This document shows positions 8,027 to 25,080 of a stretch of DNA of 64,000 bases, piece by piece. The first letter of the stretch is position 1. Every line of letters begins with the position of its first letter. The translations under genes were made by a program, and so were the position numbers. The notes under the pieces are model-generated. The model saw nothing but the letters and a program-made list of their open reading frames with translations. It was not told where the DNA came from and made no database searches. The stretch is from an uncultured Gemmatimonadales bacterium (GTDB lineage: Bacteria > Gemmatimonadota > Gemmatimonadetes > Gemmatimonadales > GWC2-71-9): contig CAVVKJ010000005.1 of NCBI GenBank assembly GCA_963748815.1, positions 64,001 to 128,000 of the forward strand. Reading direction: 5' to 3'.

Positions 8027-8066
8027 GTCACTGTCCTTCCGCAGGTTATCAGGCAGCTCCGCGGTC

Positions 8067-8131
8067 CTGATGCATTTCTAACACCCGCATCACCCTTCCT
8101 TACCAATCCCTGATACACAGAGCCCTAGCTT
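8067..8131 (+). promoter_or_regulatory. Putative kdp promoter with phased direct repeats (candidate KdpE sites)
   Basis: CTGAT/CTAAC/ATCAC/CTTAC/CTGAT at 8067, 8078, 8089, 8099 and 8110 (10-11 bp period), then -10-like TAGCTT at 8126. Confidence 0.4.
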
Positions 8132-8160
8132 GTTCCGTGTCTCCCACACGGACCCGGTTC

Positions 8161-8256
8161 ATGTCGGACATTGCCGTCATTGCACTCACCGCGCTGCTGC
8201 TGGCGCTGACCCGCGTCTTCCTCCGCGTGTGCGAGCGGCGTGGAGGCGCCCGATGA
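8161..8256 (+). CDS. 31-aa hydrophobic micropeptide upstream of kdpF (MSDIAVIALTALLLALTRVFLRVCERRGGAR)
   Basis: Read directly from the sequence (absent from the ORF track); one TM-like segment; ATGA overlap with kdpF. Confidence 0.65.
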   Translation: MSDIAVIALTALLLALTRVFLRVCERRGGAR

Positions 8257-8345
8257 CCATCCTCTATTGGGCCGCGGGCATCATCGCCCTCGGGCTCTTC
8301 GTCTACCTCCTGGTGGCACTCCTGAACCCGGAGGCGTTCGAATGA
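8253..8345 (+). CDS. kdpF: K+-transporting ATPase subunit F
   Basis: MTILYWAAGIIALGLFVYLLVALLNPEAFE with the YLxxALxxPE.F signature; GGAGG RBS; ATGA overlap with kdpA. Confidence 0.9.
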   Translation: MTILYWAAGIIALGLFVYLLVALLNPEAFE

Positions 8346-10084: not shown

Positions 10085-10087
10085 GCC

Positions 10088-12154
10088 ATGACCCGCTCCG
10101 CGACTTCCCTCGTGCCGCCCGGCACCGCCCGCCGGGCGCTCCGCGAGTCCTTCACGAAGCTCCATCCTCGCCACCAGCTCCGGAACCCGGTGATGTTCGT
10201 CGTCCTGGTCGGCAGCGTGTTTACGCTGGTCCTCGCCGGGGCCTCCTTCCGCGGCATCGGGGAGGAGAGCCCGTGGTTCATCCTCGGTGTCAGCGCCTGG
10301 CTCTGGCTCACGGTCCTGTTCGCCAACTTCGCCGAGGCGCTCGCCGAGGGGCGGGGGAAGGCCCAGGCCGACGCCCTGCGGCGGACCCGGACTGCCCTGC
10401 AGGCCAGGCGCCTCGCCGATCCGTCCAATCACCTCGACTTCGAGATGACGCCCGCCGCCGACCTCCGAAAGGACGATGTCGTCTTCGTGCCGGCTGGTGA
10501 ATACATCCCGGCGGACGGCGAGATCGTCGAGGGGGTGGCCTCGGTGGACGAGAGCGCCGTGACCGGCGAGAGCGCCCCCGTGATCCGCGAGAGCGGCGGG
10601 GATCGGAGCGCCGTGACCGGCGGCACGCGCGTGCTGTCCGACTGGCTGGTGGTACGCGTGACCGTCAACCCCGGCGAGTCGTTCCTCGACCGGATGATCG
10701 GTCTCATCGAGGCCGCGCATCGGCGGAAGACCCCCAACGAGATCGCGCTCGAGATCCTGCTGGCCGGGCTCACGCTGATCTTCCTGCTCACCGTGGCCAC
10801 ACTGCTCCCGTTCTCCATCTACAGCGTCGGCGCGGCGGGCCGGGGCTCCCCGATCACCCTTACCGTCCTGGTAGCGCTCCTCGTGTGCCTGATTCCCACG
10901 ACGATCGGCGGGCTGCTCTCGGCCATTGGCATTGCCGGCATGGACCGGATGATCCGGAAGAACGTGATCGCCATGTCGGGCCGAGCGGTGGAGGCCGCGG
11001 GTGACGTCGACGTGCTGCTCCTCGACAAGACCGGGACCATTACGCTGGGCAACCGCCAGGCGGTGGCGTTCATGCCGGCGGAGGGGGTGAGCGAGCATGC
11101 GCTGGCGGATGCGGCGCAACTGGCCTCACTGGCCGACGAAACCCCCGAGGGACGGAGTATCGTGGTGCTCGCCAAGTCGAAATTCGGCATCCGGGAGCGC
11201 GACGTGCACGCCCTGGGCGCCCATTTCGTCCCGTTTTCCGCCGAGACCCGCATGAGCGGCGTGGACCTCGAGGGCCGCCGGATCCGGAAGGGAGCCGCGG
11301 AGACGATCGTGAGCTGGGTGCGCCAGATGGGCGGTCAGGTGCCGGCCAACGTGGACACGGCGGTCACCTCCATCGCCCGGACCGGCGGCACGCCGCTCGT
11401 CGTGGCGGAGGGAGACCGGGTGCTCGGCGTCATTCAGCTCAAGGACGTGGTGAAGGGCGGGATCAAGGAGCGCTTCGGCGAACTCCGCTCGATGGGGATC
11501 AAGACCGTTATGATCACCGGCGACAATCCGCTGACGGCCGCGGCCATCGCGGCGGAAGCCGGGGTGGACGACTACCTGGCACAGGCCACGCCGGAGCAGA
11601 AGCTGGCGCTGATCCGGCAGTACCAGGCCGAGGGCCGGCTGGTGGCGATGACCGGCGACGGGACCAACGACGCCCCGGCGCTGGCGCAGGCCGACGTGGC
11701 GGTGGCTATGAACTCGGGCACCCAGGCGGCCAAGGAAGCCGGCAACATGGTGGACCTCGACAGCAACCCGACGAAGCTGATCGAGGTGGTCGAGACCGGC
11801 AAGCAGATGCTGATGACCCGCGGCGCGCTGACCACCTTCAGCACGGCGAACGACGTGGCGAAGTACTTCGCCATCATCCCGGCCGCGTTCGTCAGCACCT
11901 ATCCCGCGCTCGGTGCGCTCAACATCATGCGCCTCGCCACGCCGCAGAGCGCGGTGCTGTCGGCGGTCATGTTCAACGCGCTCATCATCGTGTTCCTGAT
12001 TCCGCTGGCGCTCAAGGGCGTGGCCTACCGGCCACTGGGCGCCGCGTCGCTCCTTCGACGAAACCTGCTGGTTTACGGCCTGGGCGGCATCCTGGCGCCG
12101 TTCGTCGGGATCAAGCTGATCGATCTTCTGCTCGTCGCCCTGCACTTGGCGTGA
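10088..12154 (+). CDS. kdpB: K+-transporting ATPase subunit B
   Basis: [20 protein letters not shown] and GDGTND motifs. Confidence 0.97.
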
Positions 12155-12163
12155 GGACCTGAC

Positions 12164-12739
12164 ATGCGTTCCCTGATGCGCCCCGCGCTCATGTTCGTCG
12201 CCCTGATGACTCTGCTCACGGGCGCGCTGTACCCGGCCGCGATCACCGGCCTGGCGCAACTGCTCTTTCCTTCCCAGGCCAACGGGAGCCTGATCGTGGT
12301 GGACGGCACGGCGCGCGGTTCGCGCCTCGTGGGCCAGCCCTTCAGCGCGCCAGGATATCTCTGGTCGCGTCCCTCGGCCACCGGCCCGACGCCCTACAAC
12401 GGGGCCGCCTCGAGCGGCTCCAACCAGGGTCCCAGCAACCTGGCACTGCACGACGCGGTGGCGGCCCGCATCACCGCGCTCCGCGCCGCCGACAGCACGC
12501 TGACCGGGCCGGTGCCGGTGGACCTGGTGACCGCGTCGGGGAGCGGGCTGGACCCGCACCTGTCGGTGGCCGCGGCGACGGTGCAGGTGCCGCGGATCGC
12601 CCGGGCCCGGGGGATGACCCCAGATGCGGTGCAGGCGGTCATCGCCGCCAATACCGAGCAGCGGTTCCTCGGGGTGTTCGGTGAACCGCGCGTCAACGTC
12701 CTCCTGGTCAATCTGGCCCTCGATCGAGGGACCCCATGA
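12164..12739 (+). CDS. kdpC: K+-transporting ATPase subunit C
   Basis: QANGSLI, SRPSA, VTASGSGLDPH and EPRVNVLLVNLALD motifs. Confidence 0.95.
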   Translation: MRSLMRPALMFVALMTLLTGALYPAAITGLAQLLFPSQANGSLIVVDGTARGSRLVGQPFSAPGYLWSRPSATGPTPYNGAASSGSNQGPSNLALHDAVAARITALRAADSTLTGPVPVDLVTASGSGLDPHLSVAAATVQVPRIARARGMTPDAVQAVIAANTEQRFLGVFGEPRVNVLLVNLALDRGTP

Positions 12740-13806
12740 TCTCGCTCGCGCTGGCGGCCCTCGTGCTGACCTCGCAGGATACGACACCGAAGTCGGCTGT
12801 GGCCTTCGGGGCGTTCATCGACACCTACTTCGCCTGGGACTTCGGCCAGCCGGACGCCTTCGACCGGCCCTTCACCACCCAGCCGGCGCGGCACGACGAG
12901 TTCAATGTGAACCTGGCCTTTCTCGAGGCGAAACTGGCCGGTGAAAAGGTCCGCGGGCGCGTGGCGCTGCAGGCCGGCACGTCGGTGCAGGCCAACTACG
13001 CCGGCGAACCCAACGTCGGGAGCGTCAGCGGGGACGACCTCGCGCGCATCATCCAGGAGGCCTGGGTGGGCGTGCGGGTGTCGCCGAAGCTCTGGGTGGA
13101 CGGCGGCATCTACTTCTCGCCCATCGGGTGGGAGAGTTTCATTTCCTGGGACAACCCGACCTACACCCGCTCCCTGCTGGCGGAGTACACGCCCTATTTC
13201 GTGACCGGCGCCAAGGTGACGTGGGCCGCCTCGTCCAAGGTGACGGCGCAGTTCCACGTGGTGAACGGCTGGCAAATCGTGTCGGAAAACAACCCCGACA
13301 AATCGTTCATCGCCCGGGTGGACTGGCAGGCCACGCCGGCGCTGGCCCTGGCGTACGCGTTCTACGCGGGCAACGAGCAGCTCGACACGCTGCCGGCCCG
13401 TACCCGGTACTACAACCAGCTGCTGGCCAAGGTGGCGGCCGGGCACGGCTGGGATTTCTGGGGGACGTTCGACGTCGGGGCGCAGACGGTTCCCGATGCG
13501 TCCACCCAGACCTGGTACGGCGCGGTGCTCATCGGCCGGAAGGCGCTCTCGAAGAAGGTGGCCGTGGTCGGCCGGGTGGAGGGGCACTCCGACCGGGATC
13601 AGGTGTTAATCTTCACCGGCACCCCGGACGGCTTCCGGACGATCGGCGGTTCGATCGGTGTCGACGTGCAACCCGAGGAGTACGTGAAGTGGCGGACGGA
13701 ATTGCGCGGGTTTTCCTCGTCGGACCCGGTCTGGCCGGATCAGGGCGCCCCTGCCGGATCGGAGACGGGTGGGTTCATCGTCACCTCGCTCTCGCTTCGG
13801 TTCTGA
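12736..13806 (+). CDS. Outer-membrane beta-barrel porin within the kdp operon
   Basis: Signal peptide, amphipathic aromatic beta-strands, C-terminal Phe; ATGA overlap with kdpC. Confidence 0.75.
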   Translation: MISLALAALVLTSQDTTPKSAVAFGAFIDTYFAWDFGQPDAFDRPFTTQPARHDEFNVNLAFLEAKLAGEKVRGRVALQAGTSVQANYAGEPNVGSVSGDDLARIIQEAWVGVRVSPKLWVDGGIYFSPIGWESFISWDNPTYTRSLLAEYTPYFVTGAKVTWAASSKVTAQFHVVNGWQIVSENNPDKSFIARVDWQATPALALAYAFYAGNEQLDTLPARTRYYNQLLAKVAAGHGWDFWGTFDVGAQTVPDASTQTWYGAVLIGRKALSKKVAVVGRVEGHSDRDQVLIFTGTPDGFRTIGGSIGVDVQPEEYVKWRTELRGFSSSDPVWPDQGAPAGSETGGFIVTSLSLRF

Positions 13807-13834
13807 TGTTCTTCAACTCCTGCGGCGGCGACGC

Positions 13835-16537
13835 ATGACGGGAACGCGCCCCGATCCCGACGCGCTGCTGGCCCGTGTTCAGCAGGAAGAGAGCCGCTCC
13901 CGACGGGGGCGGCTCAAGGTGTTTGTGGGCGCCTCGCCCGGGGTGGGGAAGACCTTCAGCATGCTGGAGGCGGCGCGCGCCGCACGGCTCGGCGGGCAGA
14001 ATGTCCTCGTCGGCGTGGTGGAGACCCACGGTCGGCGCGAGACCGCCGCGCTGGTGGAAGGGCTCGACGTGCTGCCGCGGAAAGTGTTCACCCACCGGGG
14101 TACCAACCTCGAAGAGTTCGATCTCGACACCGCGCTCGCCCGCCGGCCCGATCTGATCCTGATGGATGAGATGGCGCACTCCAACGCGCCGGGCGCGCGG
14201 CATGCGAAGCGCTACCAGGACATCGACGAGCTGCTGCGCGCCGGCATCCACGTCTTCACGACGCTCAACGTCCAGCACCTCGAGAGCCTCAACGACGTCG
14301 TGGCTCAGATCACCGGCGTGACCGTGCGCGAGACCGTGCCGGATGCCGTCTTGGACGAGGCTGACGAGATCGAACTGGTGGACGTGACGCCGGAGGTGCT
14401 GGAACAGCGGCTCCGCGAGGGCAAGGTGTACCTCCCGGAGCAGGCCCAACGGGCACTCGATCGCTTCTTCCGGCGCGGCAACCTGATCGCGCTCCGCGAG
14501 CTGGCGCTCCGCCGCACGGCGGAACGGGTGGACGAGCAGATGCGCGGCTATCGCGCCTCGGCCGGGATCGCGGAACCGTGGGCGGCGGCCGAGCGATTAC
14601 TGGTGTGCGTGTCCCCGTCCGAACGAAGCCTCCGCCTGGTACGGAGCGCTCGGCGCCTGGCCGGGCTGCTTCGGGCGCCCTGGACGGCGCTCTATGTCGA
14701 GCTGCCCCGCCACGCGACCATGCCGGCCCGAAGCCGCGAAGCGGCGCAGGAGGCGCTGCGCCTGGCGGAGGAATTGGGTGGCACCGCCGTGGCAGTACCG
14801 GGCCACGATGCCGCGGAGGAGGTCCTCGCCTACGCCCGCAGCCACAATGCGACGCGCATCATGGTCGGTCGCTCGAGGCGAGGTTGGTTGGGTCGGTGGT
14901 TCCCGATGTCCGTGGCGGGCCGTCTGGTGCGCGGTGCGGAGGGGATGCACGTCTGGGTCGGCGCCGACGACGACCAGGGCACCGAGGAGGAACGCCGGCC
15001 AACGGGCGCGCTCACCATCGCCCCGGTGCGAGACTACCTTGGCGCGACGGTGATCGTCGCGTTGATGACCGCCCTGGCCCTGCCGTTCCATGGCACGCTG
15101 GCCGAGATCGACGCCGCCATGCTCTACCTGCTCGCGGTCGTCATCACCGCCGCGCGTTATGGGCGAGGCCCCTCGGTGCTGGCCGGCCTCCTCTCGGTGG
15201 CCGTGTTCGACATCTCGTTCGTTCAGCCCTACGGGACCTTCGCCGTGACCGACGTGCGATACCTGCTCACTTTCGTGATGATGCTGGTCGTGGCGCTGGT
15301 CATGGGTGGCTTGACGAACCGCGTGCGCGAGCAGGCCAGCGTGGCACGGCTCCGCGAGCGTCGGGCATCCACGCTCTACGCGGTCAGCCGGGACCTAGCC
15401 GGCGCGCGGACCCGGCCCGAGCTCGCCCGGGTGACGCTGCGCCACCTGCAGGATCTCTTCGGTGGCTCGGTCATGCTCATCCTGCCGGACGTGGAAGGAG
15501 GTCTCGGTGTGGTGGCCGAGATGCCGCCGCAGGACGGGGACCGGCGGGACCTCGGTGTGGCGAAATGGGTGTTCGAGCATGGGGAGTGGGCGGGGCGGAG
15601 CACCCAGACGCTCCCGGCGGCCGATGCGGTCTATGTGCCACTGGCGACGCCCGACCGGGTGCTGGGCGTCGTGGGGATGCGCCCGGAGCCCCCCGATCGA
15701 CTCGCTGATCCCTCGCAGCGCCACCTGCTCGAATCCCTGCTGGGCCAGGCCGCCGTGGCGCTCGAACGCACGAAGCTGGCGGAGGAGAAGCGGGTGGTGC
15801 ATCTCGAGTTCGAGGCGGAGCAGCTGCGCACCTCGCTGCTCAGCTCGCTCTCGCACGACCTGCGCACCCCGCTGGCTGGCATCGAGGGCGCGGCGAGCAG
15901 CCTCGCCGCGGACGACGGTCGGCTCACGGGCCCGACGCGACGCGAACTCGCGCAGACTATTGTGGACGAGTCGCGACGGATGACCCGGCTGGTGGCGAAC
16001 CTGCTGGACATGGTACGGGTCGAGAGCGGGGCGCTGGCGGTGCACCGGGGCTGGCATGTGCTCGAGGAGGTGGTGGGCGTGGCGCTGCTCCGCGCCGGGG
16101 AACGGCTCGCCGGGCGCCCGGTCACCACCGATCTTCCTGCCACGCTCCCGCTGGTCCCCATCGACGACGTCCTGATTGAGCAGGTGCTGATCAATCTCCT
16201 GGAGAACGCCGCCAAGTACACGCCGGCCGGCAGTCCCATCGAGATCAGCGCCAGCGCGCGGCGCAGCGAAGTGCTCGTGACGGTGGCCGACCGCGGCCCG
16301 GGCGTCCCGACCGAGGAATCCGAGAAGATCTTCGAGAAATTCCACCGGGCGGCGCGGGGGGCGGGCGGTGTGGGCCTCGGCCTCGCCATCTGCCGAGGCA
16401 TCATCAAGGCGCACGGCGGCCGGCTCTGGGTGGACGCCCGGGAGGGCGGCGGCGCGGCATTCCGCTTTACGCTCCCGATCATCGGGACCCCACCCGACTT
16501 CGAGCGGGAGCACGGGGAACTCGAGGCGGCGGGATGA
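13835..16537 (+). CDS. kdpD: Sensor histidine kinase KdpD
   Basis: RPDPDALL, GASPGVGKT, Usp-like domain, 4 TM, GAF, SHDLRTPL H-box and HATPase boxes. Confidence 0.95.
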   Translation: MTGTRPDPDALLARVQQEESRSRRGRLKVFVGASPGVGKTFSMLEAARAARLGGQNVLVGVVETHGRRETAALVEGLDVLPRKVFTHRGTNLEEFDLDTALARRPDLILMDEMAHSNAPGARHAKRYQDIDELLRAGIHVFTTLNVQHLESLNDVVAQITGVTVRETVPDAVLDEADEIELVDVTPEVLEQRLREGKVYLPEQAQRALDRFFRRGNLIALRELALRRTAERVDEQMRGYRASAGIAEPWAAAERLLVCVSPSERSLRLVRSARRLAGLLRAPWTALYVELPRHATMPARSREAAQEALRLAEELGGTAVAVPGHDAAEEVLAYARSHNATRIMVGRSRRGWLGRWFPMSVAGRLVRGAEGMHVWVGADDDQGTEEERRPTGALTIAPVRDYLGATVIVALMTALALPFHGTLAEIDAAMLYLLAVVITAARYGRGPSVLAGLLSVAVFDISFVQPYGTFAVTDVRYLLTFVMMLVVALVMGGLTNRVREQASVARLRERRASTLYAVSRDLAGARTRPELARVTLRHLQDLFGGSVMLILPDVEGGLGVVAEMPPQDGDRRDLGVAKWVFEHGEWAGRSTQTLPAADAVYVPLATPDRVLGVVGMRPEPPDRLADPSQRHLLESLLGQAAVALERTKLAEEKRVVHLEFEAEQLRTSLLSSLSHDLRTPLAGIEGAASSLAADDGRLTGPTRRELAQTIVDESRRMTRLVANLLDMVRVESGALAVHRGWHVLEEVVGVALLRAGERLAGRPVTTDLPATLPLVPIDDVLIEQVLINLLENAAKYTPAGSPIEISASARRSEVLVTVADRGPGVPTEESEKIFEKFHRAARGAGGVGLGLAICRGIIKAHGGRLWVDAREGGGAAFRFTLPIIGTPPDFEREHGELEAAG

Positions 16538-17235
16538 GCCAGAACGGCCCGGTGGTGCTGCTGATCGAGGACGAGGTGCCGATGCGGCGGTTCCTCCGCG
16601 TGGCGCTCGCCTCGGAGTCGTACCGGCTGGTCGAAGCCGGCACGGCTCGTGACGGGTTGGCGGAAGCCGCCAGCCGGAATCCCGATCTGATCCTGCTCGA
16701 CCTCGGCCTGCCCGACGCAGACGGCATCGACGTGACCCGCCGGCTCCGGGAGTGGTCAACCCGGCCGATCATCGTGCTCTCGGCCCGCGGGCAGGAGCGC
16801 GACAAGATCGATGCCCTCGACGCCGGAGCCGACGACTATCTCACCAAGCCGTTCAGCGTACCGGAATTGCTCGCGCGCATGCGTGTCGCCCTGCGGCATG
16901 CCGCCCGCGGCCCCTCCAGTGCGGAGGAGCCGGTGTTCACGGCAGGCCAGCTCTCGATCGATCGGGCCCGGCGCATCGTGACGGTCCGCGGCCAGGCGGT
17001 GCACCTCACGCCGACCGAGTACCGGCTCCTGCTCGCGCTGGCGAAGCATGCGGGTCGGGTGCTCACGCATCGACATCTCCTGCGCGAAGTCTGGGGCCCG
17101 GGCCGCATCGGGCAGGATCACTATCTGCGGGTGTACATGGCACAATTGCGCGCCAAGATCGAGCGCGACCCGGCGAGGCCCGAATACCTGCGGACGGAGC
17201 CGGGCGTGGGGTATCGGATGATGGAGGGCGACTAG
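16534..17235 (+). CDS. kdpE: Response regulator KdpE
   Basis: Receiver domain (LLDLGLPD, DYLTKPF) plus OmpR winged helix (YLRVYMAQLR, TEPGVGYR). Confidence 0.95.
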   Translation: MSQNGPVVLLIEDEVPMRRFLRVALASESYRLVEAGTARDGLAEAASRNPDLILLDLGLPDADGIDVTRRLREWSTRPIIVLSARGQERDKIDALDAGADDYLTKPFSVPELLARMRVALRHAARGPSSAEEPVFTAGQLSIDRARRIVTVRGQAVHLTPTEYRLLLALAKHAGRVLTHRHLLREVWGPGRIGQDHYLRVYMAQLRAKIERDPARPEYLRTEPGVGYRMMEGD

Positions 17236-17269
17236 GGCGGGGCAGCGGGGCAGGGAGGCAGCAAATGAA

Positions 17270-17293
17270 ACGGGCGCACCAAGGTGCGCCCGT
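17270..17293. terminator. Hairpin between convergent genes (probable bidirectional terminator)
   Basis: Perfect inverted repeat ACGGGCGCACC-AA-GGTGCGCCCGT flanked by complementary G-rich/C-rich octamer arrays. Confidence 0.6.
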
Positions 17294-17334
17294 CTGCATT
17301 CCTGCCCCACGGCCCCGCCGCCTCCCGGCCCCGC

Positions 17335-18604
17335 CTAGTTGGGGGCGTGCACCCCCGGCCCGCCGTAGTCCCGATCCCCACCGAGCGTCGGCCCGCGGAA
17401 CTCGAAGGAGTTCGCATTGTCCATCCTGGCCACGACCTGGCGCACCGCGCCGGGGAATGCGGTGGTCCGCCCGTTCCGCCCGAACGGATCGGTATACCAT
17501 ACCTCGGGGCCGTCCGCGTTCCGGATGCGGTTGCCGTTGATGTCCACCTGCCGCCGTACGCCGTTGAAGGGGGAGCGGGGGTCGTCGTAGGCCAGGGACG
17601 TCAACGTGCCGTTGGCTGTCGCCTGGTCGCAGAGCCACCCCTTGGCGCGATCACCGTTGGTCTCGGTCGCGAAGCACATGTCCACCGTGCGCCCGGTGAT
17701 GCCCGGGCAGCGTCGGGTCGTAGAACCGGCTCGGATAGAACACCTGATAGTAGGGGTCGATGCTTGCCAGGGTCTGCCCCGAGACGGTGCGGAGGCTCGC
17801 GCTGATCTGCCAGCTCTCGTGGAGTGCGGAGCCGAAACTGGAGGACTGGCCCGGCGGCACCAGCATGTGACGCTCGATGCACGCCCGGTCAGGGACGGTC
17901 CGCTTTCCGCCGCCACTCGGGCTGTTGAGCGGCGTCGGCGCGCCGACCGGCACGTGCACCTCGTGGTCACACGACTCGACCATCTCTCCCGGCACGCCGA
18001 TGGCGGCCATGACGGTCATGCCGATCCGGGTGCCGCCGGTGCAATCCACCTGGTAGACCAGCTCGTGCAGGTTGTTGGTGAACGCATCCTTGGAGTGCGT
18101 CCCCTGGTGCAGCTTGGTGAGGACATCGCACTTGATCTCCAGGACGGAGCTGGCCACGCCGTCGCCGAGGTCGAAGGGGACGTCGTTCTCCCACTCGATC
18201 TTGTGGCCGACGTGATCCTCGTTGCGGACGCCGGTGGGGTCCCAGATGGCCAGCTGCTCGTTGGCGTAGCCAAAGGGGATCGGCCCGACGCGCCGGTAGA
18301 GGTCGGACCCGCGCGGGTCGCGCCCGTGCTCGTGCCCGAAGTGGCATCCGGTGGCAGGATCCACTGGGGGGTGCCAGGTCGGGTAGAGCTTCCCGTCGGG
18401 ACCCACCGTCGAGTACTGGTTGTGAATCTCGGCGGTACAGTCGTCGTTCGGGCCGGGTTGCCAGAGATTGTAGGCCACGCTCACGCCGGTGGCGACCGGG
18501 GTGGACGGCGCACCGGCGTCCTCGGCACAGCCCGCCAGGGCCGTCACCGAGAGGAGCGCGGCCGCGAGGGTTCCAACGGGGAAGGGCAGGGTGGGGTGTC
18601 GCAT
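17335..18604 (-). CDS. His/Cys-rich lipoprotein of unknown function, split by a +1 frameshift near 17704
   Basis: Lipobox LAGC, GGAGG RBS; frames join as ...RFYDPTLPG/ITGRTVDMCF... after removing one base. Confidence 0.7.
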
Positions 18605-18615
18605 GACTCCTCCGC

Positions 18616-19206
18616 TCAATGAATCACCAGCGCCAGGCCAAACTGGAATGAGGAGACGCTGGCGTCTCCCGCGATGATCGATGTGGTGACGGTGTTGTCT
18701 TCGGTGTGCTCGAACTGGAGGTCACCAGACAGGGTGTACTGGTAGTTGAAGTACGGGTTGAGGGAGTAGTTCTTCCCGACCCGCCACTCATATCCCAGGC
18801 CGATGATACCGCCCGGCTGGGTCGTGGAGATGACATCCACCGAGTCGCTCGCGCTGTACCCGGTGATGCCGAACCCGCCCTTCACATAGGCGCCGCGTGC
18901 AGGCCAGGGATACCAGAGCGCGATGGCGTTGGCGCTCCAGGAGCGGCGGGTTGCGACGTCCTGCGAGTTGGTCCATCCCGCGAGTTCGGCGCCGAGGAGC
19001 CAGGATTTTGACAGCACCCCGCCGGCGCGGATCGCCGCGGAGAGGTCGGTCCCGCTCTGGTCGTTGCAGATTTCGCAGTGGAGCTGGCTCGAGCCCGCGC
19101 CGAACCCGAACCCGTACCAGAAACCTTGGCGGGTGTTGGGATGCTGGGCGGTGACGGGCGTCACGAAGACCGCCAGCGCCACGGCGGTGAGCAGCAATCG
19201 GTTCAT
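18616..19206 (-). CDS. Small outer-membrane beta-barrel protein
   Basis: Signal peptide; Gly/aromatic amphipathic strands (GFWYGFGFGAG, GAYVKGGFG, IGLGYEWRV). Confidence 0.7.
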   Translation of the reverse strand: MNRLLLTAVALAVFVTPVTAQHPNTRQGFWYGFGFGAGSSQLHCEICNDQSGTDLSAAIRAGGVLSKSWLLGAELAGWTNSQDVATRRSWSANAIALWYPWPARGAYVKGGFGITGYSASDSVDVISTTQPGGIIGLGYEWRVGKNYSLNPYFNYQYTLSGDLQFEHTEDNTVTTSIIAGDASVSSFQFGLALVIH

Positions 19207-19402
19207 GAATGGAATCCTCCTGGGAGCGTGCTACCGTGCAGGTTGGGGGCCAGTGGAGGGCGGGGCCGCGGGGCAGGGGGGCAGGGGGGCAGGGACGGCT
19301 AAGGTGATGTGCGGTGGGGTGTTCCGGGGCCCTATCGATTCGTCAGCCACCATTACCGATCGAGGCGACAGGAATTGCACAGGCGAAGCGCGAAATTGCA
19401 TG

Positions 19403-19435
19403 AAAAAACGCGGGAGGGCCGAGGCCCGCCCGCGT
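19403..19435 (-). terminator. Intrinsic terminator of the metal uptake operon
   Basis: Minus strand ACGCGGGCGGGCCTCGGCCCTCCCGCG followed by TTTTTT. Confidence 0.75.
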
Positions 19436-19467
19436 GTGGGGTCGCACGCAAAGCACGCGCGGATGGC

Positions 19468-20286
19468 CTATGCCGATTTGGGCACGAACCGCCGGAGCAG
19501 GAACGCCAGCAGGAGCATGAGGCCGAAGGCGCAGACGATGACCGGTCCCGTGGGGAGGTCGTACCGGAACGACACCGCGATGCCGGCGGCCGATGCGAGG
19601 ATGCCGGTGAGCCAGGAGATGATGGCCAGGTACTTCTGGTTGGAGCTGAACTGGAACGCCGCCGCCGCCGGCACCACGAGGAACGAGAAGACCAGCAGCA
19701 CGCCGGCGATCGGCACCGACAGCGTGATCACGACGCCGAAGCTCAGGTAAAACCAGAAATCCCACCAGCGGATGCTCCACCCGTTGGCCAGGGCGGTGTC
19801 CGGTTCGAACGAAATGGTCAGGAACCGCTTCCGCAGCACGAAGTGGAAGACGCCAAGCGCAGCGTACACCGCCGCCATCTTGACGATGGCCGGCCAGGTG
19901 ACCCAGAGCAGGCTCCCCACCAGGATGTCCTTGATCGCCTCGCCGCCTCGCGGCACCCGGTCGGCCACGAGAATGGCTGCCGCCGAGGCGACGACGTACA
20001 CGATGCCGATGATCGCTTCCTGCGGGACCCGCCCCTTCTCGTGGGTGCGGGTCAGCGCAAAGAGGGCCGCGCCGAGGGTCGTGAACCCGAGCGCATAGAC
20101 GTAGGACATCGTCGAACCGGGCTCGGAGCCGGCAAAGATGGCCACCGTGGAACCGAGCGCCGCCATCTGGGCGAGCGAGAGGTCCACGAAGATGACCTCG
20201 CGCGCGATGATGTGGAGCCCGAGGTAGGAGTGGATGGCCACGATCACCATGCAGGCCGCCAGCGGCGGCAGGATCAGGTCGAGCAT
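19468..20286 (-). CDS. Metal (Zn/Mn-type) ABC-3 permease
   Basis: GLHIIAREVIFVDLSLAQ, GVLLVFSFLVVPAAAA and DLPTGPVIV motifs. Confidence 0.88.
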   Translation of the reverse strand: MLDLILPPLAACMVIVAIHSYLGLHIIAREVIFVDLSLAQMAALGSTVAIFAGSEPGSTMSYVYALGFTTLGAALFALTRTHEKGRVPQEAIIGIVYVVASAAAILVADRVPRGGEAIKDILVGSLLWVTWPAIVKMAAVYAALGVFHFVLRKRFLTISFEPDTALANGWSIRWWDFWFYLSFGVVITLSVPIAGVLLVFSFLVVPAAAAFQFSSNQKYLAIISWLTGILASAAGIAVSFRYDLPTGPVIVCAFGLMLLLAFLLRRFVPKSA

Positions 20287-20290
20287 CGGC

Positions 20291-21316
20291 TCATCCCTTC
20301 TTTCGGAAAGCGATGGCGAGGCCGTTCACCCAGCTGTCCACCAGCTCGAAGTAACTCGTGACGCCCGGGGCACCGAAAGTGTTCTCGGGGACGACGACCG
20401 CGGTGGCGCCGGTCTTCGCCGCCACCTGGTCGATCTGCGACTTGGGAAAGTAGTTGGAGGCAAACAGTGCCGGAATCTGCCGCTCCTTCATCAGGGCAAT
20501 GACCTCCTCGACGTGCCCCGGCGTCGGCGGAATCCCGGGCTTCGCCTCCACGTAGGCCACGCAGGTCACCTGGAAGCGAACGCTGAAGTACGCCCACTCC
20601 TTGTGGTAGCAGGCCATCTCCTTGCCGCGGAAATCGCTGCCCGCCCTCAGCCAGCCGCCGAGCTGGTCGGCGAGCGGCTTGCCGTGGAGCATCGTCCTGG
20701 CGATGAACCCGTCGAACTGGCCCGACTTGAGGAGGCTGAACGCCGTGGCCGGCGTCAGCACGTCCACCAGCTCCTTGCCGATGGTGGCCTCGAGGACCTT
20801 TCGCTCGAACTCGAGCTCCCGTGCCCGGTAGTAGTCGGCATTGGCCGGATCCACCTTCGTCAGCCCGGCGAGGATGTTCCGCCCGATGATGATCCCGTTC
20901 ACCGGGTCCGTGTGAATGTGCGGATTGCCCTCGGCGTGGATGTCGCCGCCGGCGCGGCTGAGCGAGGTGGGGACCTCCAGCAGCGTGATGCCGGTGTAGG
21001 CCGCGACGTATCCCGGTCCCCCCGACATGATCTTGCGGTTCCCCGCGCGGTCGAGGAGGGTGGGCACCCAGAGCTCGAGGTCGAGGCCGGTGGTCACGAA
21101 GAGATCGGCGTCGCGGAGCAGCGCCACGAAGCTTGGCTTCGGCTGGACGAAGTGCGGATCCTCGTCGCCCTGGGCGATCGAGGCGACCGTGCCGTGGTCG
21201 CCCACGATTTCCCGGGCGATGGATCCATAGGTGGTCAGGCTGGTGACGACCTTCACCTGGGCGGCGGGTGGTGCAGCCCAGAGGGTGGTGAGGAACAACA
21301 GCGCCGTGGAGAGCAT
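20291..21316 (-). CDS. Metal ABC substrate-binding protein (ZnuA/TroA cluster A-I)
   Basis: DPHF, GNPHIHTDP, YH and KPGIPPTPGH motifs. Confidence 0.9.
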   Translation of the reverse strand: MLSTALLFLTTLWAAPPAAQVKVVTSLTTYGSIAREIVGDHGTVASIAQGDEDPHFVQPKPSFVALLRDADLFVTTGLDLELWVPTLLDRAGNRKIMSGGPGYVAAYTGITLLEVPTSLSRAGGDIHAEGNPHIHTDPVNGIIIGRNILAGLTKVDPANADYYRARELEFERKVLEATIGKELVDVLTPATAFSLLKSGQFDGFIARTMLHGKPLADQLGGWLRAGSDFRGKEMACYHKEWAYFSVRFQVTCVAYVEAKPGIPPTPGHVEEVIALMKERQIPALFASNYFPKSQIDQVAAKTGATAVVVPENTFGAPGVTSYFELVDSWVNGLAIAFRKKG

Positions 21317-21317
21317 G

Positions 21318-22712
21318 TCAGTAAGTCTCGTGTTTGTGGGGACCCATCGCCCAGACGACCTGGAGTGTCAGGTTGTCGAGCGATCCGGTGGAGTCGAGAT
21401 AGTTGCGAAAGGCCTGGAGCCGAAGGTACACGAACTCGCTCTGCCACCAGGTGGCGACGGCGGTGGCGCGCCAGGTTGCGTCGTCGGGGCCCACGGGCGC
21501 CTCGACGTAGTCGTACCGGCCGCCCACCACCCAGCGCTTGCTGAGGCGCCAGCTGAGGTCGGAGTACATCCCGTACCGGGTGGTCGTCGGCTCGTCGCCG
21601 ACCCGCTGGAGCCGATACCCCTCGGTGCGCCAGGTGATGTCCTGGCGAGTGCCGGCGTTCGGAGGCCGGTAGGTGAAGCGCAGGTCGGCGCCGAGAAGGT
21701 TGCTGGTCAGGCCGGAATCGCTGTTCTGCGCGCCGACACCCGTGAAGCCGATTTCCATATACGTACTGCGCCCGAGTTGCCAGAAGTTCTGCAGCCGCCC
21801 GAGCAGGGCGGGCTGGAGGCTTCCGTCGTTCAGCGGCTCACTCTCGACGGCCGCGCCCTGCAGGAAGATCTCGGATGTTCCCTTGGCGACGGAGACCGGC
21901 AGCGTGGTGTACAGGCTGACGCCGGTGCCGGCCAGCCCGTCCTCGCCCAGGAACGCCTGGTAGACGAGGGGATAGTTGGTCTCCGGCAACGCGTGGGGGT
22001 GCCACCGGTTGAGTTCACCCACGGACATGCGGAACTTGCCGAGGTCCGCGCGGACCTTGCCTGGGAGCCCGGTCCAGTAGATGTACGCCTCCTCGACGCC
22101 GATTTCCTCCGCACCCCAGGTGAGGAAGATCTTCGTGGCGGAATACGGGTCGAGCGCCGCCTGCAGCGAGACCTCCACCTCCGCCAGCTGGAGGTCGAGC
22201 CCCTGCTGGCCGGTCTCGGCGGAGAACTGCACGTCACCAGTGGCGCTGATTTCGGGGTTCATCGACGACTGATTGCCTTGCCGACTCACGAACTGGGTCG
22301 GCGCGGCGGGCACGGAATCGGGGGTGACGGGGACGCCACCGGCCGCGGCGGCGCTGTCGGCTGCCGCGCGAATGGCGGCCAGCGGGTCCGCCGCCGCATC
22401 GGCCGCCGGCGGAGTCGCCGCGAGATCACACCGTGCGGCCACGGTGGCGTTGACGCGAGCGGTGAGCGACGCGACGGTGAGCGCCAGCGAGTCCACTGCG
22501 GCGTTGCCGGTCTTTTTCGGCGGGGCCGGTGGAGGCAGCGGGGCTGGGGGGCAGAATCCGGCGTCGAGTGAATCGAGCCGGGCCGTGAGCATTTGAACTG
22601 CCCGCTGCAGCGAGTCCACCGTGGCGGTGGGGACTCCCTGCGCTGCGGCGCGGGGCGCGATGCCCGCGGCAAAAGTGGCGATCACGACAGCCACGCGGAA
22701 TACCAACCGCAT
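21318..22712 (-). CDS. Outer-membrane porin-like protein of the metal uptake operon
   Basis: Signal peptide, N-terminal coiled-coil/low-complexity region, NPEIS...DPY...EEAY...NRWHPH, C-terminal GPHKHETY; GAGGAGG RBS before ATG 22712. Confidence 0.75.
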   Translation of the reverse strand: MRLVFRVAVVIATFAAGIAPRAAAQGVPTATVDSLQRAVQMLTARLDSLDAGFCPPAPLPPPAPPKKTGNAAVDSLALTVASLTARVNATVAARCDLAATPPAADAAADPLAAIRAAADSAAAAGGVPVTPDSVPAAPTQFVSRQGNQSSMNPEISATGDVQFSAETGQQGLDLQLAEVEVSLQAALDPYSATKIFLTWGAEEIGVEEAYIYWTGLPGKVRADLGKFRMSVGELNRWHPHALPETNYPLVYQAFLGEDGLAGTGVSLYTTLPVSVAKGTSEIFLQGAAVESEPLNDGSLQPALLGRLQNFWQLGRSTYMEIGFTGVGAQNSDSGLTSNLLGADLRFTYRPPNAGTRQDITWRTEGYRLQRVGDEPTTTRYGMYSDLSWRLSKRWVVGGRYDYVEAPVGPDDATWRATAVATWWQSEFVYLRLQAFRNYLDSTGSLDNLTLQVVWAMGPHKHETY

Positions 22713-22715
22713 AGG

Positions 22716-22786
22716 CCTCCTCATTCCTGTTGGAAGGAGCCATTGTCCACGGCTCCTGATGTCAGTGGCAGGACGATCCGAGGAGG
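22716..22786 (-). promoter_or_regulatory. Predicted RBS-sequestering structure between the leader ORF and the porin gene
   Basis: mRNA CCUCCUC (22786-22780) pairs with SD GAGGAGG (22722-22716); UCCUG pairs with CAGGA; internal hairpin AGGAGCCGU/AUGGCUCCU. Confidence 0.75.
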
Positions 22787-22787
22787 G

Positions 22788-23123
22788 TCAGGCGGGTGGG
22801 GCGCGGGAATGCTGGTGGGAACGTGGTGTTGCGTCGGCAGGCGCCATCGGGGCGGCGATCAGCGCCCGCAGCGATTCCGGTGGCGCCGTGCGGACGATCT
22901 CGATGCTGCCGAGCGCCTCGCGCTGCGCCACGACCGGCTGCGCCAGGGTGCAGCGGTCGGCGTGATGCTGGCCGCCGTGCGCCTCGACGTGCGTAACGCC
23001 GGCGCAGGGATCCTGCCCAGCCACGTGGAACATGGCGCCATCGGCCAGGGGCACACCCAAGGCGCCGAGCAGGAAGAGCCCGGAGAGGAGCGAGGCGCGG
23101 AGGCGGACGGTGAGGCGGATCAC
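22788..23123 (-). CDS. Exported His/Cys leader protein ending in RAPPA (DUF2946/CruR-like putative arrest peptide)
   Basis: GTG start (uncertain), hydrophobic signal, C..HVEAHGGQHHADRC, C-terminal HQHSRAPPA*. Confidence 0.7.
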   Translation of the reverse strand: MIRLTVRLRASLLSGLFLLGALGVPLADGAMFHVAGQDPCAGVTHVEAHGGQHHADRCTLAQPVVAQREALGSIEIVRTAPPESLRALIAAPMAPADATPRSHQHSRAPPA

Positions 23124-23186
23124 AGGCTGGAATGTGCCGGGTCGGCGCGCGCGGGACAAGGCGCGCCGACCCGGCGTCGGTTCAGG

Positions 23187-23783
23187 TCAGTGCGCGTGGC
23201 CGCCGACCATCTTCGGCGCGTCTCCCGAGAAGCTGTACCCGTTCTTCGGGCACTTGAGGTCGGGATTGGTCGGGGAAAACACCCCCGCCGGGTTGTTCTT
23301 CCAGAGCCAGACGTGCAGGTCGTAGTGGTGCAGCCCCGACGGCATGATGGGGGGATGCCCTTCCATCGGTCCCTCGAGCTGCTTGCCGAAGACACTCGGC
23401 GGGTTGTCGCCCACGGCGGCGACGGGCGCGAACCACTCCGCGGCCACGAGTTTCAGGTGGTCCCCGTCAGGCTCGTAGATCAGCACCTGCGGCTTCAGCG
23501 GGTCCATCGTCGGGCCGATATTTCCCAGATTCAGGAAGTGCACCCCCATACCGCCCGCCACATAGCTCATCGTGCCCTCGCTGTGCCCCTTTGGAAAATC
23601 GATGCAGGCGACGGTGGAGAGGAAGCCGTCGGCCACCGCCACCATCGGGTCCTGGTACTTGTCGAGGGCGGCACGGGCGCTTGCGAGATCGGGTGCGAGC
23701 GTCGGTTGCCCCTTGGCGGGGGCCTGGGCGTTGGCGACAGACACCGAAGCAACGATCAGGGTGGCAATTGCAGCGAGTTTCAT
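23187..23783 (-). CDS. Secreted hypothetical protein
   Basis: Signal peptide; GGMGVHF, PQVLIYEP and HYDLHVWLWKNNPAGVF segments look conserved. Confidence 0.7.
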   Translation of the reverse strand: MKLAAIATLIVASVSVANAQAPAKGQPTLAPDLASARAALDKYQDPMVAVADGFLSTVACIDFPKGHSEGTMSYVAGGMGVHFLNLGNIGPTMDPLKPQVLIYEPDGDHLKLVAAEWFAPVAAVGDNPPSVFGKQLEGPMEGHPPIMPSGLHHYDLHVWLWKNNPAGVFSPTNPDLKCPKNGYSFSGDAPKMVGGHAH

Positions 23784-23895
23784 GGGAGCCTCAGATGGAG
23801 AGTGAGGAATTCTTCAGGCACATCACAGTACCCTCAGCTGTGCAGAAAGCAATACGCGGCGGCCGCGCCCGCCCCTTGCCCGATTCCTCCAGTTA

Positions 23896-23914
23896 TGTAT
23901 ATTCATTGTATACA
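23896..23914. promoter_or_regulatory. Putative MazEF autoregulatory operator
   Basis: AT-rich inverted repeat TGTATA-N7-TATACA just upstream of mazE. Confidence 0.6.
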
Positions 23915-23933
23915 CCTCAACTGGACCACCGAA

Positions 23934-24173
23934 TTGCGAACGCATATATCAAAGTGGGGCAACAGTTTAGCCGTCAGACTGCCCAAGCCGTTCATGGATG
24001 AGCTGGGGCTCTGCTCAGGTGCCGAGGTTGACCTCACCCTGAGGGACGGCCGGCTCATCCTGGTGGCTGCGAGCCGGGAATACGCCCTGGAGGAACTGGT
24101 GGAAGGGATCACCCCGGAGAATCGACACCGGGAATCCGACTGGGGACGTCCCAGGGGCCGGGAGGTTTGGTAG
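23934..24173 (+). CDS. mazE: AbrB/MazE-family antitoxin
   Basis: TTG start; KWGNSLAVRLPK...YALEELVEGITPENRH...DWG.PRGREVW. Confidence 0.88.
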   Translation: MRTHISKWGNSLAVRLPKPFMDELGLCSGAEVDLTLRDGRLILVAASREYALEELVEGITPENRHRESDWGRPRGREVW

Positions 24174-24487
24174 CGCCGGATCGAGGCGACCTCGTGTGGG
24201 TGAACATCGAGCCGGCCGATGGGGGCGAAGCTTTCCGGCGTCCGGCGCTGGTGGTCTCACCCGCACTCTACAACGCGCGCTCCGGCCTCGCACTGATGTG
24301 CGCCATCGCGCGGCATCCGAAGGGATATCCCTTCGAGGTGGCGCTCCCGGCCGGCCTCGCCGTGGAGGGCGTCGTCCTGGCCGACCACCTGCGGAGCGCC
24401 GACTGGAAGGCCCGTGAGGCCGAGCTGGCCGGGCGGGTGCCCGCCGCCGTCGTCACCGACGTGCTTGCGAAGTTGAAGCCGCTGTAA
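24167..24487 (+). CDS. mazF: MazF/PemK-family toxin (active-site residues altered)
   Basis: PDRGDLVWV, RRPALVVSP..YN, KGYPFEV and DWKAR motifs; overlaps mazE. Confidence 0.85.
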   Translation: MVAPDRGDLVWVNIEPADGGEAFRRPALVVSPALYNARSGLALMCAIARHPKGYPFEVALPAGLAVEGVVLADHLRSADWKAREAELAGRVPAAVVTDVLAKLKPL

Positions 24488-24531
24488 CAGGTGCGAGGAC
24501 TGAGGACTGAGACGAGGCGGAGGCCCATTCT

Positions 24532-25080
24532 GTGGCAAGTGACAACTTGATCCAACTGACGAACGGCGCGTCGCGGGTCCGCGGGACGTTTCGCGTCAAC
24601 GGCGAGTCGCGTGAGGCGCTCTACAAGCCGCACACCACCCTGCTCGAGCTCCTGCGCGAGGAGCTGCAACTCACCGGCACCAAGCACGGGTGCGAGCTCG
24701 GCGAGTGCGGGGCCTGTACCGTCCTGGTCGACGGGGTGCCGGTGCTCTCCTGCCTGGTGCTGGCACAGGCGGTGGAAGGACAGGCGGTGTCCACGGTCGA
24801 GGGAATGGCCGACGGACCCACGCTGCATCCCCTGCAACAGGCGTTCATCGAACTGGGCGCGGCGCAGTGCGGTTATTGCACGCCGGGCGTCCTCCTCGCC
24901 GCGGAGGCGCTCCTCGTGGAAACCGCCGCCCCCACGCGGGACGACATCAAGCTGGCGCTGTCCGGCAACCTCTGCCGCTGTACCGGCTACATCAAGATCT
25001 ACGAAGCGATTGAGCTGGCCGCGGCGCGCATGCGGGGAGAAGCGGCCGAACCGCGGCGGGAGACGCTGCATGGCTACTAA
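24532..25080 (+). CDS. Molybdenum hydroxylase small 2x[2Fe-2S] subunit (HcrC/CoxS-like)
   Basis: GTKHGCELGECGACTV, QCGYCTPG and GNLCRCTGY motifs. Confidence 0.92.
   Translation: MASDNLIQLTNGASRVRGTFRVNGESREALYKPHTTLLELLREELQLTGTKHGCELGECGACTVLVDGVPVLSCLVLAQAVEGQAVSTVEGMADGPTLHPLQQAFIELGAAQCGYCTPGVLLAAEALLVETAAPTRDDIKLALSGNLCRCTGYIKIYEAIELAAARMRGEAAEPRRETLHGY

Follow-up and report, generated by a model that had tools for sequence, protein, structure and literature searches.

In a 64,000-nucleotide window from an uncultured Gemmatimonadales bacterium (assembly GCA_963748815.1, contig CAVVKJ010000005.1, positions 64,001 to 128,000), a small upstream open reading frame (uORF) of 111 codons, called the leader below, precedes genes for an outer-membrane porin, a ZnuA-type substrate-binding protein (SBP) and a ZnuB-type permease. 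The leader is a real, conserved gene, and very probably a cis-acting arrest leader: it carries a predicted N-terminal export signal, an invariant Cys with conserved His residues and a terminal RAPP motif, and the Shine-Dalgarno (SD) motif of the porin gene is predicted to pair with a strand within reach of a ribosome stalled at RAPP. Sensing of a metal by the leader is highly likely, and occlusion of the ribosome binding site is a likely output. The full model, in which a metal-sensing arrest leader of the same kind as CruR and CutF would set the translation of porin, ZnuA and ZnuB, with zinc releasing the stall, has in our judgement an even chance of being correct. Coordinates refer to the window, and all features are on the minus strand unless stated otherwise.

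A conserved leader gene precedes the porin gene

The leader ORF extends from a GTG at 23123 to a TGA at 22788 and ends with HQHSRAPPA*, as a preliminary description of the window had proposed, together with a signal-like N-terminus. For comparison, 110 porin loci were fetched, and relatives assign the genome to the Gemmatimonadales. After removal of 16 duplicates, 94 distinct loci remained, 10 of which stop short of the leader region, leaving 84 evaluable loci. A RAPP-type leader was present ahead of the porin gene in 81 of these 84, which bears out the conservation that had been predicted for homologs linked to this porin. Seventy-four of the 81 form a strict set, which includes the locus of the window and one frameshifted leader (L072). 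The other seven (L010, L024, L038, L042, L046, L107 and L109) failed the strict filter, were recognized by inspection, and are outside all counts given out of 74; the L046 leader had been missed by the first tblastn search, and the L024 leader (L024:1732-2128) ends with RPPP instead of RAPP. The leader was absent at three loci (L023, L076 and L104), and two of these three leaderless homologues carry the barrel as a fusion with a long frame upstream, which is open over 765 and 882 codons, respectively. Frameshifts in the leader or the porin gene of a few assemblies (L009/L093, L010/L082, L072/L098) are probably sequencing errors, because several genes of the same loci are hit.

The identity of the leader with 12 orthologues of the genus was 0.72, 0.77 and 0.56 at the three codon positions, and 0.89, 0.91 and 0.60 over residues 34-62, third positions varying most. 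A leader profile matched 1,227 representatives at E<=1e-3 and 88 of 151 genomes of Gemmatimonadota, and 142 of its best 150 matches ended with RAPP, RSPP or RGPP. When the genome was screened for ORFs with RAPP or RGPP near a stop codon that also have a hydrophobic N-terminus and an in-register Cys, the leader locus was the single match, and three control motifs yielded no match each. The ORF belongs to no Pfam or NCBIfam family. A scan of 17000-25000 with Rfam gave no match, and therefore no known riboswitch is present in this region. In the ESM Atlas, unnamed clusters from Gemmatimonadota and Nitrospirota were found, one of them with 11% DUF2946, which we regard as a lead only.

Predicted export signal, putative metal site and RAPP motif

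Residues 1-29 (23037..23123) form a predicted signal peptide or signal anchor, composed of an Arg-rich start, a hydrophobic helix (predicted at residues 4-34) and a P-x-x-D-A c-region, with P25, D28 and Ala at position 29 found in 46, 50 and 48 of 68 aligned leaders, respectively. Conservation also delineates a putative metal site of the His3-Cys type, H33/H45/E47/H53/H54/C58 (22950..23027). C58 is present in all 68 leaders, H33 in 52, H54 in 50, E47 in 49 and H45 in 46, and all 13 leaders of the genus retain D28, H33, H45, E47, H53, H54 and D56. The C..H..H..HH..C patch of the preliminary description exists as C40..H45..H49..H53H54..C58, but two of its members, C40 and H49, were rejected as core ligands, as they are kept in only 8 and 5 of the 13 genus leaders. 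An AlphaFold2 (AF2) model of the leader contained the N-terminal helix alone (pTM 0.41) and no folded metal site.

The RAPP motif (R107-P110, 22794..22805) is located one residue before the stop codon. Its Arg and both of its Pro residues are invariant in 68 of 68 leaders while their codons vary freely, in a set of loci that was itself chosen on the motif. The placement of the P- and A-sites was taken from studies of other RAPP peptides (PMC10951233, PMC12992588), in which residues upstream of RAPP were found to modulate stalling (PMC10951233). The predicted P-site codon is thus 22799-22797, and 22799 is position +1 in all footprint coordinates. The distance between the Cys and RAPP, counted for single-Cys leaders as for CxxC leaders, was 45 residues in 55 of 74 loci, including that of the window, 44 in 12 and 42-43 in six, with no value for one. 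The linker before RAPP has a fixed length, yet its amino acid identity within the genus is as low as 38%. A full CxxC in the C58 register was found in 16 of the 74 leaders of the same operon and in one of 142 top profile matches, and the leader of the window, without CxxC, reads C58-T-L-A61. Therefore, C58 corresponds to the first Cys of a CruR-type motif, the second Cys of which has been lost. At the predicted stall, 51 residues would separate C58 from the P-site, and 55-76 residues the His ligands. Residues at distances of 51-76 from the P-site are beyond the exit tunnel of the ribosome, so that the ligands would be outside of it.

The operon encodes a porin, a ZnuA-type SBP and a permease

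The first gene after the leader (21318..22712) encodes an outer-membrane porin of 464 amino acids, for which AF2 predicted 16 strands, an OprP-like architecture and no TonB plug. It starts with the ATG at 22712, 75 nt past the leader; an in-frame ATG at 22724 was rejected as the start because it is not conserved. The model superimposed on OprP (2o4v) with a Z score of 20.2 and a root mean square deviation of 3.2 over 268 residues (Foldseek E 1e-9). Assignment as a TonB-dependent receptor was rejected, as the barrel has 16 strands and no plug. The porin matched no Pfam or NCBIfam family, and a tblastn search against plasmids gave no match. The present findings give an unannotated porin family a likely role. 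Invariant residues of the porin include H238/H240 and the C-terminal H459/H461, the C-terminus of the Vibrio barrel described below being likewise rich in His, and two Cys in an N-terminal helical periplasmic region; these are candidate metal-conducting residues.

The second gene (20291..21316) encodes an SBP of the ZnuA family (cluster A-I; PF01297, E 4e-45), with H55, H133 and H238 kept in 65-66 of 66 homologues. The third gene (19468..20286) encodes a ZnuB/ABC-3 permease (PF00950, E 6e-33), the only ABC-3 permease of the genome. ZnuA follows the porin in 68 of 68 loci, and ZnuB is present in all 56 loci that have room for it. A cognate ATPase was not found: none of 53 loci contained a downstream ORF with a Walker-A motif, the best score of a ZnuC-model search of the genome, which is 86% complete, was 91 bits compared with a cut-off of 306, and no ZnuC-like match at E<=1e-30 was obtained in 16 other genomes of the genus, with at most 49 candidates scored in each. 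We flag this ZnuAB pair as one for which no ATPase was found.

The SD motif of the porin gene is predicted to pair within reach of a stalled ribosome

The SD motif GAGGAGG (22716..22722) is located 3 nt before the porin ATG. As the preliminary description had recognized, a fully complementary anti-SD, CCUCCUC (22780..22786, +14 to +20), is found one base past the leader stop codon, and the fold model paired the two at a probability of about 1.0. An inner hairpin of 9 bp (22735..22757; 22757-22749 with 22743-22735), which had also been described, was recovered in the minimum free energy (MFE) structure. It shortens the loop between the anti-SD and the SD, and its stem is kept in the genus while its loop is variable. 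In contrast, a UCCUG/CAGGA helix thought to reinforce the fold was absent from the SD-closed MFE structure and is not consistently kept in the genus. A basal stem, absent from the preliminary description, extends the structure: its 5' strand (22789..22795, +5 to +11) is complementary to and paired with 22713-22707, where the porin AUG and first codons are located, such that bases of the last Pro, Ala and stop codons of the leader are paired with the AUG region. Six of these pairs are present in 15 of 15 genus sequences, in bases that are also constrained as leader codons. None of 200 shuffled sequences was as stable as the segment 22705-22800 (z = -3.18). For the wider segment that had originally been suggested for folding, 22700-22830, the structure was less exceptional (z = -1.90; 9 of 200 shuffles as stable).

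Across the 74 loci, the pairing tracks the footprint of the predicted stall. The best complement of the SD was at +1..+21 in 50 of 74 loci, compared to 4-16 of 74 across six control windows, and when the Pro codons were excluded (+7..+21), the numbers were 44 and 4-11. The location of the anti-SD shifts by clade, from past the stop codon in the genus to within the last leader codons elsewhere, and stays in the footprint. With porin starts curated by hand, the modelled cost of opening the SD dropped by at least 2 kcal/mol in 48 loci with a footprint to +15 and in 55 with a footprint to +18; a ribosome placed ten codons earlier produced such a drop in three loci only. Changes of the anti-SD within the genus are mostly C-to-U and preserve pairing as G-U. 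In a clade of 18 sequences, the anti-SD is at +10..+16 within the last codons of the leader, and compensatory changes were observed: at +16, U-A (10 sequences) alternates with A-U (5 sequences), and 56 of 72 cells are Watson-Crick pairs, which was equalled by 9 of 5000 shuffles of an alignment anchored on RAPP and GGAG. The SD stem would thus be within reach of a stalled ribosome, and its pairing is shown computationally and by conservation, with the anti-SD of the genus at the edge of the footprint.

Several results count against an RNA switch of this kind. RNAalifold did not predict the anti-SD helix from the MAFFT alignment of the 18 sequences (A4), and counting of pairs in the unanchored MAFFT alignment revealed no covariation above that of shuffles. 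Indels shift the SD out of register in the MAFFT alignment, which is why it lends the anti-SD no support; the covariation emerges only once the sequences are anchored on RAPP and GGAG, and the relatives are not independent. The cost of opening the free SD was above the shuffle mean in only 55 of 74 loci, a median of 17% of shuffles being as high. At the locus of the window, this cost was 11.0 kcal/mol for the free RNA, 8.2 at +15 and 3.9 at +18. A block to +15 left the SD paired (bases unpaired at 0.19 or less, except for 0.51 of the first G), because the anti-SD is at the footprint edge. At +18, the SD bases were mostly unpaired at 0.1-0.3 and alternative pairings formed, and the porin AUG was buried again by a downstream hairpin. 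Opening at this locus would need the unwinding activity of the ribosome. Moreover, the stall site is situated in a region with more C than G (a C>G bubble), and the genome encodes Rho.

The leader probably starts a leaderless mRNA

A hexamer resembling a -10 box, CACATT (23131..23136), is located 7 nt before the GTG of the leader, and a -35-like hexamer, TTGTCC (23154..23159), precedes it by 17 nt. Neither had been noticed in the preliminary description. Of 14 genus loci, 11 have a TTGT(C/T)-type hexamer 17 nt upstream of the -10, also where their spacers differ in sequence. The pattern [TC]AnnnT at -5 to -8 was present at 57 of 73 leader starts, which had been picked blind to the upstream DNA, compared to none of 74 porin starts and 16 of 810 internal ATG or GTG codons, and only one of the 73 leader starts is preceded by an SD motif. 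A consensus promoter scanner did not list this promoter, the matches being 4/6 and 3/6 and below its threshold, and thus the promoter is proposed on the comparative counts. Taken together, the conserved -10 and -35 hexamers and the lack of an SD motif suggest that the operon transcript is probably a leaderless mRNA that begins at the start codon of the leader. The promoter of its own also supports the leader as the operon's first gene. A perfect inverted repeat of 15 bp, without a U-tract, overlaps the -35 and -10 hexamers (23136-23175); it is located just past the stop codon of the upstream gene and is not kept in every member of the genus.

A homologous Vibrio module favours zinc

A locus of Vibrio campbellii contains these three genes in identical order. 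Its barrel was aligned with the porin profile by hhalign at 95.8% with 25% identity. Its SBP shares 28% identity with the SBP of the window, with the three His aligned, and carries the residue context of H69 and H148 of Vpa1307. Vpa1307 (ZnuAII) of Vibrio parahaemolyticus is a His-dependent zinc transporter, and H69 and H148 are needed for growth under zinc depletion (PMC3794297). The omr-znuAII-znuBII operon of this species is listed in the Zur regulon and is induced 283-1034-fold in zinc deficiency (PMC9817125). From gene order and SBP motifs, we infer that the V. campbellii locus is its counterpart. It lacks a leader ORF and contains two perfect palindromes that resemble Zur boxes. A box of this type was found upstream of one of the 74 leaders. 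The genome of the window and 15 of 16 genus genomes contain one Fur-family match each, and the match in the former genome is not Zur-like (98 bits as Fur, 39 as Zur). A plasmid record of Sulfurovum mangrovi contains the same porin-SBP-permease module behind a leader (L163:2262-2618) with a His cluster, a CxxC and a terminal HAPP, the spacing of its Cys motif being 69 instead of 45. The same zinc-type module thus seems to be under the control of Zur in one lineage and of a leader in others, which favours zinc as the sensed metal. If the leader senses a metal, we consider zinc the probable one, with less confidence than we have in metal sensing as such. The preliminary description had suggested a variant that senses zinc, nickel or cobalt; the Vibrio homologue makes the cargo point to zinc more firmly, and the contrast to CxxC leaders, to which it had appealed, is soft, as 16 of 74 leaders keep this motif.

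Some observations speak against this choice. With 25-28% identity, the Vibrio module is only distantly related, the best NCBIfam match of the SBP is AztC with 84 bits, all matches being below the cut-off, and Mn, Fe or Co are further substrates of cluster A-I proteins. It is conceivable, though rather unlikely, that the same arrest leader and RNA switch serve the sensing and import of Ni, Co, Mn or Cu. His-only leaders similar to CutF precede the Ni/Co genes HupE/UreJ, the CxxC that is retained in some leaders is Cu-responsive in CruR, the best relatives of the SBP in the PDB include YfeA and MntC besides ZnuA, and E311 of the SBP (57 of 66 homologues) could serve as a fourth ligand. However, the SBP has the set of three His of Vpa1307, the homologous Vibrio module carries Zur boxes and is induced by zinc starvation, and the operon contains no copper gene.

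Paralogous leaders head uptake and efflux genes

Paralogues of the leader, which often lie within a few kb of one another, head genes for TonB-type receptors (at least 19 cases), and ZnuD was the best sub-threshold NCBIfam match for eight of 18 such receptors. In the loci L164-L175 (e.g. G008:C10, G031:C108, G180:C186, G096:C2 and G099:C8), two to four leader copies are found within about 3-12 kb. One copy in such a cluster precedes porin-ZnuAB and the others precede TonB receptors, an arrangement that resembles a metal-uptake island run by leaders. Ten further paralogues head TolC genes (L139, L151, L153, L154, L155, L157, L161, L176, L177 and L197), three of them shown with CzcB/CzcA following. 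A DUF2946 gene is also known to head czrCBA in Caulobacter.

By analogy with CruR and given the uptake cargo, we think it highly likely that the metal would release the stall rather than induce it. The TolC/Czc-linked leaders detract from this direction, which the preliminary description had proposed as metal-dependent shut-off and which is weakened by them: they share the H-x3-C motif, and the modelled stall opened the SD in six of seven cases. Such look-alikes on efflux genes with the same geometry indicate that the leader family can work in either direction. If the CzcBA pumps are induced by metal, their leaders must stall in its presence, like CutF, whereas the uptake leaders would be released, like CruR. 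A further caution concerns periplasmic sensing, as the export signal is dispensable in CruR (PMC9426467), whereas the signal peptide of CutF is essential.

Proposed mechanism and alternatives

In the model that we favour, transcription from a sigma70-type promoter, suggested by the conserved -35 and -10 hexamers, would produce a leaderless mRNA starting at the leader GTG. The ribosome would stall when Pro109 occupies the P-site and Pro110 the A-site, as expected from the RAPP motif and as in ApdA, ApdP and CruR. It would then cover the strand that buries the porin AUG and SD, which would presumably open them for translation of the porin. When zinc is plentiful, the His3-Cys site would bind it and fold, and the pulling would free the stall. 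Termination would follow two codons later, the stem would form again, and the uptake genes would be shut off. The leader would take the role that Zur has on the same module in Vibrio.

Two alternatives retain the sensing of a metal. It is unlikely that the main output is Rho-dependent termination in the manner of CruR, with the stalled ribosome shielding a C-rich rut site and the hairpin being secondary. Such termination is the established CruR mechanism (PMC9426467), Rho is present (688 bits), and the excess of C over G is highest around the P-site, at -29..+30 (mean skew 0.39-0.42, above 0.3 in 77-78% of the loci, C32/G9 in the window). However, this skew is partly forced by the Pro codons and the anti-SD, the intergenic region of 44-107 nt (median 75) is short compared to the 162 nt of cruR, and the SD pairing follows the footprint; both outputs can coexist. 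Quite unlikely, in our view, is the polarity of CutF, in which the metal would induce or prolong the stall and turn the operon on for periplasmic handling or loading instead of scavenging. This reading would fit the SD-shielding stem-loop and the signal peptide that CutF needs, the near-identical leaders that head TolC/CzcBA efflux genes with the same geometry, and an operon without ATPase in a genome in which no ZnuC-like gene was found. Yet the operon encodes an uptake module, which starvation induces in Vibrio, and the RAPP of CruR, unlike the PPP motif of CutF, arrests intrinsically in vitro without copper (PMC12992588).

A very unlikely alternative is that no metal is sensed at all, and that the leader is a secretion monitor like SecM or ApdP, or that any terminating ribosome simply melts the anti-SD and thereby couples translation. 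RAPP leaders are classically monitors of Sec or YidC (PMC10951233), and a terminating ribosome would clear the RNA to about +21, at a median opening cost of 4.0 compared with 3.9 for the stall at +18, values based on rough SD calls. These possibilities have to contend with an invariant Cys and conserved His residues at a fixed distance from RAPP, with the fact that simple coupling does not require a RAPP motif, and with the downstream genes that were identified, which encode porin-ZnuAB, a TonB-type receptor or a TolC/RND (resistance-nodulation-division) pump and in no case a sec gene.

Comparison with known arrest leaders

CruR (Bp2923) of Bordetella pertussis, the prototype of PF11162 (DUF2946), likewise heads a metal-uptake operon, carries a Cys motif 45 residues before a terminal RAPP and a C>G bubble near the stall, and is predicted to be largely unstructured; its N-terminal export signal has a predicted counterpart in the leader. 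Its arrest was demonstrated in vitro (PMC12992588), and insertion of five residues into the Cys-RAPP spacing of 45 broke regulation (PMC9426467). The kinship to CruR that had been proposed in the preliminary description is strengthened by the identical spacing. Differences exist as well: the leader has a single Cys with His and Glu instead of CxxC, its cargo is a TonB-independent porin with ZnuAB in place of a TonB copper receptor, an anti-SD is found in a short intergenic region, whereas that of cruR has 162 nt and is terminated by Rho, and the leader occurs in Gemmatimonadota and is apparently leaderless at the RNA level. The search against PF11162 (gathering cut-off 23.7 bits) that had been called for left the leader of the window unmatched at E<=1, and 16 of 68 aligned leaders matched weakly (best E 0.023). 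For five of the 16 CxxC leaders, a match that covered almost the whole model gave 11.8-15.8 bits, none of the leaders scored reached the cut-off, and a search of the own genome returned a chance match elsewhere only (E 0.76). Nor does the leader head a copper-homeostasis operon, the context of DUF2946/CruR, but porin-ZnuA-ZnuB. The shared Cys-RAPP register and the partial CxxC point to a divergent leader of the CruR/CutF type, and we regard it as probably a distant homologue of these two without filing it as a DUF2946 member.

CutF of Rhodobacter capsulatus, to which the leader is proposed to be similar, is an exported nascent sensor, the stall of which melts a stem-loop that shields an SD (10.1101/2022.11.11.516240, PMC9973294, 10.1101/2025.02.05.636593). 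With 111 amino acids, PP at 109-110 and a gap of 75 nt, the leader is within the limits used to collect CutF-like proteins. CutF has CxxxC and a PPP tail where the leader has His3-Cys and RAPP, and CutF stalls on Cu and turns on a detoxification enzyme, whereas the leader is linked to an uptake operon, probably with the opposite polarity. ZnuA-type neighbours of CutF-like proteins are not named in the accessible part of 10.1101/2022.11.11.516240. ApdA and ApdP share a RAPP a few residues from the stop codon and a localization signal (PMC10951233, PMC12992588), but these peptides monitor Sec/YidC. The metal-linked RAPP uORFs SLIV_16130 and SLIV_18480 of Streptomyces lividans resemble the leader in their Cys/His conservation, and metal sensing by them is putative only. 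The accessible text of PMC12992588 does not mention zinc. The Vibrio omr-znuAII(vpa1307)-znuBII operon has the same barrel, SBP and permease without an ATPase (homology via V. campbellii; PMC3794297, PMC9817125), but Zur-like boxes instead of a leader ORF and only 25-28% identity.

The mechanistic class is already published, with RAPP, release and Rho for CruR, and with a stall and an SD stem-loop for CutF. The novelty that had been claimed for the leader thus shrinks, because gating by an SD hairpin is the CutF mechanism and because a prediction of His-only CutF-like leaders ahead of Ni/Co genes already exists (10.1101/2022.11.11.516240). Published source data also list RAPP uORFs ahead of similarly annotated genes. 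In the literature searched, which covered few subscription papers, we found neither a characterized zinc-sensing arrest leader nor an account of the Gemmatimonadota leader family, and three supplements of PMC9426467 in their accessible form mention neither ZnuA nor Gemmatimonads. The characterized metal-sensing arrest leaders that we found, CruR and CutF, are both copper sensors, and, according to the CruR paper (PMC9426467), neither Cu nor Zn has a known riboswitch. With a leader tuned to zinc, the sensing of metals by nascent chains would reach the second most used transition metal, and the control of zinc uptake in a phylum without evident Zur would have an explanation. In addition, one and the same operon is headed by CxxC leaders or by single-Cys leaders, and look-alikes are found on uptake and on efflux genes, which together offer a natural series for metal specificity and for the question of release versus induction. 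A wider generalization is tentative and, in our opinion, somewhat doubtful: zinc-sensing, leaderless, exported His3-Cys arrest leaders may replace Zur in Gemmatimonadota, and one family (88 of 151 genomes, often in multiple copies) may run the whole zinc regulon post-transcriptionally, turning uptake off and efflux on with nearly the same motif and RNA geometry.

Neighbouring genes

Directly upstream of the leader, a gene at 23187-23783 encodes a secreted protein of 198 amino acids that is rich in His and Met and belongs to no Pfam family; this arrangement is seen in 12 of 70 loci, and all 12 are from a close group of the genus. Behind the permease gene, the region 17651-19206 encodes a small beta-barrel (PF13505, below the cut-off) and a lipoprotein-like ORF of 317 amino acids with 19 His and 7 Cys. 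Both follow the permease in six genus loci and possibly belong to the metal operon. On the plus strand, the operon is flanked by genes for potassium uptake, a kdp operon at about 8000-17235 that includes two-component genes of the KdpD/KdpE type, as read from the translations, and by a toxin-antitoxin pair of the MazE/MazF type (PemK E 4e-19) at 23876-24487.

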